Notes: generated from the letters alone by a model not told the origin. Positions 8,789 to 64,000 are shown, counted from the stretch's first letter. The stretch: 64,000 nt of DNA from an uncultured Candidatus Saccharibacteria bacterium (GCA_963843205.1 CAWJJN010000003.1:56325-120324); one strand, 5' to 3'. A program made the numbers and translations.

Positions 8789-9184
8789 ATGGCAGGACTG
8801 AACGAAACGGCTGACAGGATCCGCACATCGGTGTCCGAACAAGGAGACCATCCTGTCGGCGCGCAATTATCTGAGGCGCTAGCTGCCGTAAAGGGTCTTG
8901 GCGGCGACTCTCTGTTGGCCCAGGCATGTACACTCTCCGAGCAAATGTATAATGCCTTTTGCGCTGCTACTCAAGGCGTCAATAACACTGAGGTGACCAT
9001 AGCGGATGAGCGGCTGTTCGAGACACATCTTGCCACCCGCGTAGCCCTTGAAGGTCTTGCCCAAGTGGCAGACCAAATCCAGCATGCCCTGGATTCGCTG
9101 GCCGCTGGGCGCAACCATACAGAACAATACCTGACACAAATAGGCTGCGGAGGCGAAGCCGCAGTGCCTGCGCAAAACGTATAG
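8789..9184 (+). CDS. Stand-alone helical-module protein (131 aa)
   Basis: MAGLNETADRI...ATQGVNNTEV...EQYLTQIG; ATG abuts the secY stop. Confidence 0.7.
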   Translation: MAGLNETADRIRTSVSEQGDHPVGAQLSEALAAVKGLGGDSLLAQACTLSEQMYNAFCAATQGVNNTEVTIADERLFETHLATRVALEGLAQVADQIQHALDSLAAGRNHTEQYLTQIGCGGEAAVPAQNV

Positions 9185-9198
9185 TCGAAACAGGGGTA

Positions 9199-10203
9199 AT
9201 GAATAACTCTTCAGGGACGGGCCATAGTATTAAAGATATCGCCTTAGACCTAGAAGAAATACGCATGACGTTACCGGTCATGGAATCCGAGGAAGCTGCC
9301 TTTGCCATTAGAGGATCATGTGCGGCGCTTGTCTCGCTGGGGCTACCCAATACTAACGAAGCGGGTCAAGTTCTGGGCAGTGTCACTCTCGCCGGCGAGA
9401 AGGTGCAAAAAGCACTGAATCTATTAATTGCAGCCTTCGTGTCAATAGGACATTATTCAGAAGAAATAGGCATAGACCCAGGCTGTTATGAACGCGACCC
9501 CGGGCCAGTCATAAGACAGTATCGTGAATGCATATCAGAGTCCAGAAAAATAGTACATAGCTGGCAGACAAGTGGTGAGCGTAATGGGAAGCCAGCCGAG
9601 CGGGGCTGGGGCTACAACAGGTCGGATACGAGAGATTATGAGGAGACATTTGCCGCCCTGCTTCAAGGAAGGACAATATCAAGCCTTATCGAAGGGCACC
9701 CCTCCCCGCGCATCGTAGATCTCATGGCCTCAACCACTGTGGTAAATGAATTATTACGCCAATCTTCATCAGAAAACAAATGCGGCTACGCCGCAAGGCT
9801 AAGTGATATAAGAACTGAAGAGGAAGTTGAAGCAGATAATATATTGGGCATTGAATTACTGGAAGAAGACCTGGGTCAACTAGCAGCGCTGCGGCGCCTA
9901 AAAGTAAAGGTCGGCGAAGGCGGGGCAAGTTTAGTATTAGCGCGGCCTGTTGCGGGCCTATACAGCCTACCAAGGCATTGGATATTTTTCAGGCGAGCTA
10001 TAAATACAATCTGGGAGATGCTTGATGCAAATAACGGCGTCGCGCTACTGCAAGTGCCCGGATATCATCTGGCAAAAAAATGCGGCTTTAGTATCAGAGA
10101 ATGGGTAGCGAGCACTAAAATGCGGGGGATTGATATAAGGCATGAGGGCGATACCGTAATGCTCATCAAAAGGCCTAACTCTCCGGACTTATTCTCGAGA
10201 TAG
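9199..10203 (+). CDS. Helical module + uncharacterised (possibly degenerate Rossmann/methyltransferase-like) domain
   Basis: SIKDIALDLEEIRMTLPV...IGHYSEEIG followed by ~240 aa alpha/beta domain with RIVDLMAS. Confidence 0.65.
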   Translation: MNNSSGTGHSIKDIALDLEEIRMTLPVMESEEAAFAIRGSCAALVSLGLPNTNEAGQVLGSVTLAGEKVQKALNLLIAAFVSIGHYSEEIGIDPGCYERDPGPVIRQYRECISESRKIVHSWQTSGERNGKPAERGWGYNRSDTRDYEETFAALLQGRTISSLIEGHPSPRIVDLMASTTVVNELLRQSSSENKCGYAARLSDIRTEEEVEADNILGIELLEEDLGQLAALRRLKVKVGEGGASLVLARPVAGLYSLPRHWIFFRRAINTIWEMLDANNGVALLQVPGYHLAKKCGFSIREWVASTKMRGIDIRHEGDTVMLIKRPNSPDLFSR

Positions 10204-10337
10204 ACTTGCCAGCTGCATCCTAGTATCTTCTCGTCCCTGCCTTTTCGAAAAAAGATATCAACCTCTAGCTTGCTGCAATACCTTGTCTATTCTACGGGTT
10301 GTTCGGCTCTAGTTTAATGAACCTCCTCCGCAATATG

Positions 10338-10366
10338 TTGTAATTGGCGCCATAGCCTGTTATAAT
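10338..10366 (+). promoter_or_regulatory. Sigma70 promoter upstream of infA
   Basis: TTGTAA-17 nt-TATAAT with TG extension. Confidence 0.75.
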
Positions 10367-10383
10367 CAATAATTGTTATATTT

Positions 10384-10605
10384 ATGGCAGGTAATAAACA
10401 GGTAATCGAGTTAACAGGGACAATAATTGAGACTCTTCCGGGTACTCAATTTCGCGTCGAACTCGAGAACGGCCATCAAATAATAGCTCATGTCGCCGGT
10501 AAGATGCGGAAACACTACATTCGCATCGTGCCAGGAGACAGCGTGACGGTTGAGTTGACCCCTTACGACCTTACTAAGGGCAGAATCACCTATCGCAAAT
10601 CATAA
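10384..10605 (+). CDS. infA: Translation initiation factor IF-1
   Basis: [37 protein letters not shown]...[12 protein letters not shown]. Confidence 0.99.
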
Positions 10606-10652
10606 TATCAATATAAGCAGTGTGTTATGCACCTGGAAGGAGCATGATCCGC

Positions 10653-10790
10653 ATGAAAGTGCGTGCAAGTGTCAAAAAGATCAGCCCAGACGATAAATTA
10701 GTCTGGCGTAAAGGCCGGGGCAAAAAGTCCAAGGCCAAATTGTATGTGATTAACAAACTTAAGCCGAAGCACAAGCAGAGGCAAGGGTAG
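10653..10790 (+). CDS. rpmJ: 50S ribosomal protein L36 (45 aa, zinc-free, with insertion)
   Basis: Read by hand, not in ORF track: [45 protein letters not shown]. Confidence 0.95.
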
Positions 10791-10794
10791 AATT

Positions 10795-62293: not shown

Positions 62294-62306
62294 CCTTCTT
62301 CAACTA

Positions 62307-62373
62307 TTGACTTGCCCTCCTAGATCCGGTATTCTTGACATGTTGGAGCCTACTATATTAAGTAGGCTTTTTT
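62307..62373 (+). promoter_or_regulatory. secE-nusG promoter with leader terminator-like hairpin
   Basis: TTGACT-17-TATTCT (62307-62335); AGCCTACT-ATATTA-AGTAGGCT-TTTTT (62347-62373); GGAG RBS. Confidence 0.65.
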
Positions 62374-62385
62374 CATAGGAGACAT

Positions 62386-62781
62386 ATGGCAGCAGAACAA
62401 TCATCCAAGCCGAAACGCCGAATGGTCAAAAAGGCCGAGTCTGTGCACCAGGCCGCCGAGAAACAGCAGCAAACAGCAAAGCCCGAAAAAAGGGGGGTGT
62501 TCCGGCTAGTTCTTAAATACATTGCCGCGCCGTTCCGTTTTATCGGCCGCCCGCTCAAAAAACTAGGGCGCTTTAAATTCTTCCGCGTCATCGGTCTGAT
62601 TCTTGTTCCGCCATACTTCCGCAACAGCTGGAAAGAGCTTCGTCAGGTTACTTGGCCCAATCGCCGCGAGACCTGGCAACTGACCATGGCTGTCATGATA
62701 TTTGCAATAATCTTCGGCGTTATGATAGCGCTCGTCGACTATGGGCTAGATAAATTATTTAAACAGGTACTATTAAAGTAA
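62386..62781 (+). CDS. secE: Preprotein translocase SecE (N-terminally extended)
   Basis: WKELRQVTWPNRRET + TM; upstream of nusG. Confidence 0.92.
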   Translation: MAAEQSSKPKRRMVKKAESVHQAAEKQQQTAKPEKRGVFRLVLKYIAAPFRFIGRPLKKLGRFKFFRVIGLILVPPYFRNSWKELRQVTWPNRRETWQLTMAVMIFAIIFGVMIALVDYGLDKLFKQVLLK

Positions 62782-63326
62782 TGAATGCAAAACGCTACGA
62801 CGCAACCAAACAGTGGTACGCAATCCACACCTACAGCGGCTACGAAGAAAAGGTAGCCGAGAGCATCCGCCAACGGGCTGATTCGTTGGACATGAAAGAC
62901 AAGATCTATCAGGTCTTAGTTCCTAAAGAGAAAATGATCGAAATCAAGAACGGCAAGCGCCGTGTAGTCGAAAAGCGCATCTTCCAGGGTTACGTCCTAG
63001 TACAGATGAAAATGTCAGAAGACGCCTGGTACATCGTGCGTAACACCCCGAGTGTTACCGGCTTCGTCGGCAGCGGCTCAGAGCCGACACCTGTCAGCGA
63101 AGAAGAGATCGAAAAGATCCAGAAGCGCATGGGTCTTGAACAGCCCAAGCACAAGATCGACTACCGTATCGGCGAAGTCGTCAGTATCACCGACGGTCCG
63201 TTCAAGGGCTTTGACGGCAGCATTAACGAAATCGACGCCGCCAAGGGCAAGCTCAAAGTACTGGTCAACATGTTCGGCCGCGAAACACCGGTTGAACTGG
63301 ACAGCCTCCAAGTAAAGCGCGTCTAG
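62781..63326 (+). CDS. nusG: Transcription factor NusG
   Basis: WYAIHTYSGYEEKV, IFQGYV, TPSVTGFVG, GPFKGF, FGRETPVEL. Confidence 0.99.
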   Translation: MNAKRYDATKQWYAIHTYSGYEEKVAESIRQRADSLDMKDKIYQVLVPKEKMIEIKNGKRRVVEKRIFQGYVLVQMKMSEDAWYIVRNTPSVTGFVGSGSEPTPVSEEEIEKIQKRMGLEQPKHKIDYRIGEVVSITDGPFKGFDGSINEIDAAKGKLKVLVNMFGRETPVELDSLQVKRV

Positions 63327-63366
63327 ACAACGACTACAGCAGTCTATTAATCCGACAGATCTAATT

Positions 63367-63597
63367 ATGGGTGCATACGAAAGCAAATTTTATCGCGAGT
63401 ACGTCCGGACGCCAGTAGGGGCGGTTATTGCCGGCGCTGGCGCACTGGCTTGCGAGGCAATTGCCATAACCGGAGCTATCGACCCTGACGCACTGGGCCT
63501 GCCGGCCTGGGCCTCAGTACCACTGGCCGGAGTTGGCGTAGTACTGGCCGGCATAACCGGTGATGCGATCTTCAAATACTCAGACGCCCCAAGCTAA
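63367..63597 (+). CDS. Small two-TM membrane protein
   Basis: 76 aa hydrophobic ORF. Confidence 0.55.
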   Translation: MGAYESKFYREYVRTPVGAVIAGAGALACEAIAITGAIDPDALGLPAWASVPLAGVGVVLAGITGDAIFKYSDAPS

Positions 63598-63677
63598 AAG
63601 CTTTCCGAATTGTTATAATAGATATTTACTAATTATTGCTTCATGGGCTTTTGCCTGCGTTGCCGGGGGTAATAAAA

Positions 63678-64000
63678 ATGTCTGAAACCAATATAGAAAC
63701 TCTGGGGCATAGCTTAACAGAAGGAATGAGAGCCGTTACCGAAGGTGTCCAAGAGTTCGACCAGAGCAGACAGACGGCGCGACTGATCGGCGAGCAGGTC
63801 CACGAGATGCTTGCTGCCATTGCCGGTTTTGACCCGCTGGGTCTTGCCAATCAGCTGGGCCTTGCCAGCAGGGGCATAAAGGACGGTCATAGCCAAATGC
63901 TGTATGGTGCCGGCGTCGTAGCGGACGCGCTGCAAGGAGCCGAGCATCGAGCAATTCGCTCCGCAGAAGGCCACATCGCCGAAGCGCTTGGCGCTATAGG
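63678..64000 (+). CDS. Long helical-module protein, 3' truncated by window
   Basis: Read by hand: MSETNIETLGHSLTEGMRAVTEGVQEFD...ALQGAEHRAIRSAEGHIAEALGA; similar to 61706. Confidence 0.75.
   Translation, partial: MSETNIETLGHSLTEGMRAVTEGVQEFDQSRQTARLIGEQVHEMLAAIAGFDPLGLANQLGLASRGIKDGHSQMLYGAGVVADALQGAEHRAIRSAEGHIAEALGAI

Follow-up and report, generated by a model that had tools for sequence, protein, structure and literature searches.

Four small, acidic, free-standing helical open reading frames (ORFs) in a 64,000-nucleotide stretch of DNA from an uncultured Candidatus Saccharibacteria bacterium (GCA_963843205.1 CAWJJN010000003.1:56325-120324; the whole stretch is hereafter called the window) are real genes, and they belong to two protein classes. 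The first, starting at 8789, is by its profile match a bona fide stand-alone copy of a helical module of ~95 amino acids (aa), here termed the tag, which an alignment places at the N- or C-terminus of eight enzymes or unknown proteins of the window. The other three, starting at 24384, 61706 and 63678, constitute, as judged from homology searches, one lineage-restricted family that is separate from 8789 and is referred to below as the long family. A role of these stand-alone proteins as partners or co-substrates of the tagged enzymes is the best available reading, albeit a tentative one. An original prediction, made from the sequence alone, had grouped all four as cargo-less proteins and possible carrier or partner subunits; its observation was real, yet it merges the two classes. 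The source lineage is uncultured Saccharimonadales (TM7, Patescibacteria), with a SecY that is 65-83% identical to those of Saccharimonadales metagenome-assembled genomes, the closest relative (83%) being encoded by locus L001 (DATIIM010000003).

The four genes and their two classes

8789-9184 (+): free-standing tag module, 131 aa
24384-24926 (+): member of the long helical family, 24384 subfamily, 180 aa
61706-62293 (+): member of the long helical family, 195 aa, divergent from 60050-61519 (-) and 92 nucleotides (nt) upstream of secE
63678-64000 (+): first 107 codons of a 191-aa member of the long family, between nusG/a 76-aa membrane ORF and rplK

All four frames are intact on the + strand from these starts, and each is preceded at 6-9 nt by a purine-rich, Shine-Dalgarno-like ribosome-binding site (RBS), which confirms the predicted starts and lengths of 131-195 aa. 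The gene at 63678 was completed by P0006, a 191-aa protein of the representative library, around which a near-identical contig has the order nusG, 76 aa, 191 aa, rplK, and rplA. The four proteins carry net charges of -8 to -13, contain no transmembrane or hydrophobic segment (maximum Kyte-Doolittle 19-residue mean ≤1.3), and have no Sec signal. The predicted lack of enzyme domains was also confirmed, as searches of Pfam, NCBIfam, and PDB sequences returned no enzyme or other domain for any of them. The expectation that all four are all-helical held for the two proteins for which AlphaFold2 (AF2) monomer models were made, namely 8789 (predicted local distance difference test score, pLDDT, 80.5) and 61706 (pLDDT 54). 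Additionally, a regular expression built from the four turn strings matched just these four among the 116 ORFs of ≥100 aa in the window, in what was a post hoc test.

The assignment of 8789 is based on a hidden Markov model (HMM) of the tag, which was built from 15 modules taken from the window and L001 and run against two independent ORF sets (3369-5130 ORFs). This profile matched 8789 with E=1.7e-7 and 29 bits (among 3369 ORFs), improving to 1.5e-11 and 42 bits upon iteration. In the alignment, 8789 spans the whole tag module, with an extra N-terminal extension of 20 aa and an insertion of 13 aa after the turn, and its C-terminal end, ..EQYLTQIGCGG, bears the signature of the tag family. The AF2 model shows an elongated hairpin plus additional helices at the N-terminus, the helices spanning residues 3-17, 22-36, 39-60, and 74-117. 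Against the 180-195-aa family, 8789 is marginal (E=0.0023-0.065; hhalign probability 6%), and the treatment of the four proteins as one class therefore did not stand. In L001, secY is followed by a tandem of free-standing tags (98 and 91 aa) and then by a tagged gene, so a stand-alone tag after secY is kept in both genomes that have the system. The 98-aa tag (L001:11533-11829) gave a weak match to Pfam DUF6244 (E=0.0017, 19 bits versus a cutoff of 31.6, over 40 residues); being below the cutoff and confined to these residues, it was regarded as uninformative and the DUF6244 identity was rejected.

Within the long family, the predicted alignment of 61706 and 63678 at their starts was borne out, since the N-terminal strings match column for column and the two proteins are paralogues with 34% identity (BLASTP E=1e-9 over the part within the window, 3e-21 at full length). 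The homologues of 24384 are P0002 (65% identity), P0007 (51%), and P0009/L047:2586-3125 (45%), this subfamily being conserved over its full length in four sources (45-65% identity). A more distant homologue of 61706, L046:1002-1589 (30% identity, 195 aa), lies after nusG in locus L046 (GCA_035510655). The 24384 and 61706 subfamilies join collinearly (hhalign probability 87%, E=3.8e-6, 170 columns), and a three-sequence HMM of one subfamily matches 24384 and P0002 with E=2e-4 (among 3340 ORFs). Each subfamily is also represented immediately after nusG, P0007 being the example of the 24384 type, and this position recurs in three genomes (63678, L046:1002, and P0007). The AF2 model of 61706 comprises five helices at low confidence; the protein ends in ..IGAYGDAIGVDF. 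A promoter-like site is located upstream of 24384, at 24284-24312.

The long family is confined to few sources. A HMMER profile scan of 1.84 billion representative proteins yielded seven true members; P0008, P0010, and P0011 were rejected as compositional, helical repeat artefacts, P0008 being a 7162-aa protein with a 164-aa repeat that scores ~13 bits per copy. A word-indexed homologue search with 8789, 24384, and 61706 returned just self-matches and one homologue of 24384, and a metagenome scan with the alignment of the 24384 subfamily gave no matches. Furthermore, no additional members were found in 80 related nusG loci from metagenomes or in about 40-45 related secY loci, among which L001 carries tags instead.

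The long family diverges far faster than its neighbour genes. Between the window and L046, NusG (window 62781-63326 versus L046:454-999) is 100% and SecE 79% identical, whereas 63678 and its positional orthologue share 38% identity in a gap-free alignment; at the DNA level, ~84% identity extends across secE-nusG and breaks off precisely at the stop codon of nusG. The gap-free cross-species alignment of the 61706 subfamily covers 176 aa. Rapid divergence of this kind is often seen in proteins engaged with other cells and fits such a role.

Relation of the long family to the tag

We lean slightly towards a derivation of the long proteins from the tag, a link that several resemblances suggest. 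By the tag profile, 8789 is a member, and 24384, 61706, and 63678 are not (best E=0.015-0.08); at these values, however, the long-family proteins are the best matches after the true tags in both ORF sets. The profile touches P0007 at the N-terminal start motif and P0006 at the C-terminal Y motif. In profile-profile comparison, the tags and the whole long family align with a probability of 43%, which is under the usual significance thresholds, and the tags and the first 100 residues of the long family with a probability of 64% (E=6.5e-5, 70 columns). In the reverse direction, 8789 is the sole further match of the long-family HMM (E=0.0023) and thereby forms a weak bridge between the tag and the long family.

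Two sequence motifs point in the same direction. The start M-[AS]-x-[ILV]-[EDG]-x-[VIL]-G-x-x-L is found in all long members and all N-terminal tags, and the helix end Y-x3-[IAL]-G is shared by tags and long members. The combination of an [ILV]-x-x-[VIL]-G-x-x-L start with a terminal Y-x3-[ILMA]-(x)-G is present in all four proteins (in 63678 via P0006), a pattern defined partly post hoc; in 24384, Phe replaces the Tyr of the terminal motif, which its homologues keep. The central turn that the original prediction had described as shared by all four proteins occupies the same columns in 24384, 61706, and 63678; in 8789, by contrast, the alignment places the turn at the internal turn of the tag, and there is no statistical support for equating it with that of the long family.

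Two further all-helical ORFs of 168-175 aa with the start M-[AS]-x-[VI]-[EG]-x-[VI] were noticed in related loci: L001:17534-18040 (168 aa), which precedes a C-terminally tagged gene, and L047:4554-5081, which adjoins a long-family gene. Neither has detectable kinship with the tag or long-family profiles (hhalign <4%).

Gene neighbourhoods and operon gaps

Three of the four stand-alone genes adjoin a tagged gene: 8789 precedes 9199, 24384 follows 22921/23489, and 61706 is divergent from 60050 (-). The tagged genes of the window are those at 4302 (-), 9199, 16892, 22921, 40096, 47805, 49589, and 60050 (-). The features neighbouring the stand-alone genes are as follows.

7259-8788 (+): secY, whose stop codon abuts the 8789 start (from translation)
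9199-10203 (+): tagged gene, with an N-terminal tag of ~95 aa (tag HMM E=3e-22) followed by a 240-aa domain
22921-24196 (+): tagged gene upstream of 24384, comprising ORFs 22921-23541 (N-terminal tag, E=3e-22) and 23489-24196
60050-61519 (-): tagged S-adenosylmethionine (SAM) methyltransferase (tag HMM E=2.5e-22; Pfam Methyltransf_11, E=1.1e-5)
62386-63326 (+): secE-nusG, with long-family paralogues on both flanks (Pfam SecE and NusG on the L046 orthologues)
63367-63597 (+): 76-aa hydrophobic ORF between nusG and 63678 (from sequence; also a gene call on the near-identical Logan contig)

The ATG of 8789 begins at the base right after the secY TAA, with GGAGG 8 nt upstream. The predicted placement of 8789 directly upstream of tagged 9199 was confirmed, and the two are probably co-transcribed. 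The spacer between the 8789 stop and the 9199 start measures 14 nt and contains no terminator-like site on the + strand; the first promoter-like site beyond 8789 is at 10338, past 9199. The 240-aa domain of 9199-10203 matched no Pfam family. The gap between 22921-24196 and 24384 measures 188 nt. The two ORFs within 22921-24196 overlap by 53 nt in different frames and may represent one gene of ~425 aa, divided either by a frameshift or by an error in the assembly.

The ribosomal spc/alpha operon of the window runs rpsE-rplO, with L30 missing, and in Saccharimonadales adk and map are missing between secY and infA. In this order, the rplO-secY, secY-infA, and nusG-rplK spacers range from 2 bp to ~8 kb and hold unrelated, lineage-specific genes, the inserts of relatives including lipoproteins, sigma factors, and STAS and PAS proteins (window spacers 4129-7258, 8789-10794, and 63327-end; compared loci L002-L127). 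Because these gaps are general insertion hotspots, the nearness of the stand-alone genes to sec genes is not to be over-read.

Just 5′ of secY lies an MsbA-type ABC exporter (5351-7204 (+); L001:5562-7367), which is kept in about 9 close relatives with or without nearby tag genes. It was considered as a tag-specific exporter and rejected, as about 9 relatives have the exporter with no tags nearby. A reading of the ...IGxG end as a double-glycine leader handled by a PCAT was likewise discarded, as the exporter has no peptidase domain and the C-terminal tags end the protein.

Proposed pairing with tagged enzymes and other readings

On the tentative reading favoured here, which draws on adjacency, shared motifs, and analogy, the four ORFs would encode non-enzymatic, free-standing relatives of a tag that is fused to either end of enzymes, its cargo in this lineage apparently comprising methyltransferases, a kinase-like protein, and a GS-like protein. 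The 8789 protein would be the tag alone, encoded on the same transcript as secY and tagged 9199, and 24384, 61706, and 63678 would be a derived longer form of ~180-195 aa with five helices, retaining the N-terminal and Tyr-x3-(Ile/Ala)-Gly motifs of the tag. The stand-alone helices would pair with the tag of the enzyme-bearing members, and this pairing could turn an exposed hairpin into a closed bundle recognised by an export or targeting machine, a logic that would parallel EsxA/EsxB pairs and Lap-LXG effectors. Pairing, export, and any action on a host bacterium are inferred steps that may occur here. Several features suggest such a partner role. The predicted structure of 8789 is an elongated hairpin, of the kind that usually buries surface by pairing; the proteins are acidic, have no Sec signal, and diverge quickly, with three of the four beside tagged genes; and the membership of 8789 in the tag family, the tandem tags after secY in L001, and the coherence of the long family point the same way.

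The closest analogies are offered by the substrates of type VII secretion systems (T7SSs). WXG100 proteins act by pairing into four-helix bundles. EsxA/EsxB of that family are ~100-aa, acidic, signal-less helical hairpins, often encoded by tandem genes beside larger substrates, which the proteins described here may resemble; both have a conserved turn motif and a Tyr motif closing the last helix, YxxxD/E in WXG100 proteins and Y-x3-[IA]-G in the present ones, and the 98-aa/91-aa tandem of L001 has a layout like that of an esxB-esxA pair. However, there is no sequence match to WXG100, the W-x-G motif is missing (the turns are TQGVNN, NGSSS, GVSSN, and QGAEH, and three of the four proteins are Trp-free), the Tyr motif is a different one, and 8789 has four predicted helices in 131 aa. 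The tag, moreover, occurs at either end of its cargo, C-terminal placement being unusual in T7SSs, and no EssC/EccC ATPase is encoded nearby. Lap proteins bind the helical domain of an LXG effector and are required for its export. LXG with Lap1/Lap2 (DUF3130/DUF3958; T7SSb, Bacillota) thus offers a second likeness, in that enzymes with a helical domain and polymorphic cargo have small helical genes beside them, whereas the LXG domain measures ~200 aa and is N-terminal only, the tag ~95 aa and N- or C-terminal; in addition, a partner gene is not found beside every tagged gene, the cargo is modifying-enzyme-like, and no immunity genes are evident. A third likeness concerns EspB and the PE/PPE proteins, helical bundles of 110-180 aa to which long members of 180-195 aa with five predicted helices can be compared; the long members may, by this analogy, combine a tag and its own partner in one chain. 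They differ in showing no sequence or Foldseek similarity (the sole model having a pLDDT of 54) and in that no ESX locus lies in the window. The WXG100-pair and LXG/Lap logic of type VII secretion, the same arrangement of Esx substrates and small helical partner genes, and the fused PE-PPE-like bundle of EspB are documented in the literature (PMC13622651).

Several observations weigh against the pairing reading. As noted above, the alignment of the tags with the whole long family (43%) is under the usual thresholds. No match to WXG100 (PF06013) with E≤1 was obtained in Pfam/NCBIfam for the four proteins and 16 tag modules, and none of the profiles for LXG (PF04740), DUF3130/DUF3958 (Lap), and PE/PPE was matched. 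Searches of PDB profiles with the proteins and tags recovered just coiled coils and no T7SS substrate. Foldseek searches of the PDB returned no T7SS substrate among the top 50 matches of the 8789 and 61706 models: 8789 matched generic hairpins only (E≥0.68) and no Esx protein among its best 50, and the search with 61706 was uninformative because its model is poor. No ATPase of the FtsK/SpoIIIE type (EssC/EccC) or of a type IV secretion system (T4SS) is encoded in the window or in the 21-kb L001 locus; the sole P-loop transporter there is the ABC exporter, which also occurs in many tag-less relatives. No report of a T7SS in Patescibacteria was found in the literature. The partner relation is also not one-to-one, as no tagged gene adjoins 63678 or its L046 orthologue and five of the eight tagged genes of the window have no stand-alone neighbour, and with secY-infA and nusG-rplK being insertion hotspots, nearness to sec genes may mean nothing. 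Membership in WXG100 or LXG and the suggested likeness to actinobacterial ESX-associated proteins found no support in any search. Of the original partner-subunit proposal, the fit of kinship and layout to the tag system is retained, and WXG100/LXG/ESX membership is not. Membership in PspA/ESCRT-III was also rejected (no Pfam match; Foldseek E>1).

A further comparison concerns the BID-type domains of T4SS effectors and relaxases, which are helical bundles of roughly 100-140 aa that are carried by unrelated enzymes as a delivery signal. The tag resembles these in being a helical module fused to unrelated enzymes, but BID domains occupy the C-terminus and bear a basic tail, unlike the acidic proteins described here; no T4SS genes lie in the window. 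Saccharibacteria live attached to other bacteria, and their T4SS may be a candidate route, unlinked to these genes by the present data. This T4SS is essential for epibiotic growth, yet its substrates are described as unknown, and the literature found names no delivered protein or targeting signal (PMC12857230, PMC12102498). The fuller version of the pairing reading, to which we give a low probability, is an undescribed targeting system that is T7-substrate-like but unrelated in sequence, in which a hairpin ending in Y-x3-I-G on host-modifying enzymes would be paired by free-standing or elongated copies and delivered to the host via the T4SS or another route. If true, the helical tag and its free-standing partners would provide the first sequence handle on such cargo in at least one lineage, and the "helical hairpin plus partner" design would have arisen outside type VII secretion. 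Even without export, the long family clearly exemplifies very rapidly evolving genes inside the most conserved operons (secY and secE-nusG).

Among the alternatives, the one that survives best, though we consider it unlikely, is that the proteins are themselves substrates for export or display (helical effectors, or surface or translocon parts) that use the terminal motifs of the tag with no pairing. The presence of both the N- and C-terminal tag motifs, the occurrence of 63678, L046:1002, and P0007 after nusG without a tagged neighbour, and very rapid evolution with several paralogues per genome would all suit such substrates; yet no export machine or signal was found, three of the four genes adjoin tagged genes, and 8789 is nearly just a tag, leaving hardly any part that could carry a separate activity.

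Rather improbable is the view that the long proteins are helical orphans with no kinship to the tag, which they would resemble through composition (Ala/Leu/Glu/Gly-rich) and the picking of motifs by eye, with only 8789 in the system. It gains from the low hhalign probabilities between tags and the long family (1.5-43%), from tag HMM matches to long proteins (E=0.015-0.08) that cover short terminal pieces only, from the repeat artefacts drawn in by the long-family profile (P0008, P0010, and P0011), and from matches of the tag profile to tropomyosin and designed bundles in the PDB. Against this, the long proteins are the top non-member matches in two independent ORF sets, the N-terminal half aligns at 64% probability over 70 columns, the start motif is present in every N-terminal tag and long member, and the genes adjoin tagged genes.

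Two other roles are given little weight, and about equally so. As antidotes or regulators, the proteins would, in the manner of immunity proteins, keep the enzyme inactive in the producer by binding to its tag or its enzyme domain. Small size, acidity, rapid evolution, and the absence of domains in genes beside enzyme genes are in keeping with this, as is the placement of 24384 downstream of its tagged neighbour, which is usual for immunity genes; 8789, however, lies upstream of the tagged gene beside it and is a tag itself, stand-alone and tagged genes are not matched one to one (five of the tagged genes lack such a neighbour), the post-nusG members have no enzyme neighbour, and the cargo is methyltransferase- or kinase-like rather than typical of toxins. 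As cytoplasmic housekeeping or scaffold proteins of Sec/ribosomal operons, they might instead serve, for example, as docking platforms for tagged enzymes. The start of 8789 right after the secY stop, the flanking of secE-nusG by 61706 and 63678, the post-nusG position in three genomes, and tags at either enzyme end, which suit docking over threading, agree with this view. It is difficult to reconcile with a family that has just seven members among 1.84 billion representatives, that is missing from 80 related nusG and about 40 related secY loci, where the same gaps are filled by unrelated variable genes, and that shows 38% identity where NusG shows 100%, unlike housekeeping proteins.

Finally, decaying, functionless leftovers of tagged genes after cargo loss are very improbable: 8789 is barely more than a tag and another tag-like N-terminal fragment lies at 4173-4300, but the frames are intact with RBSs, the 24384 subfamily is conserved at full length (45-65% identity) in four sources, and the 61706 subfamily is gap-free over 176 aa across species.

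The fragment just mentioned belongs to ORF 4173-4619 (+), the first ~40 codons of which (MSDVHEVGNSLSQHLL...) are tag-start-like (tag HMM E=0.06-0.07). Lying between rplO and the opposite-strand tagged gene 4302-5306, which the rest of the ORF overlaps, this start may represent a fragment or a remnant of a tag.

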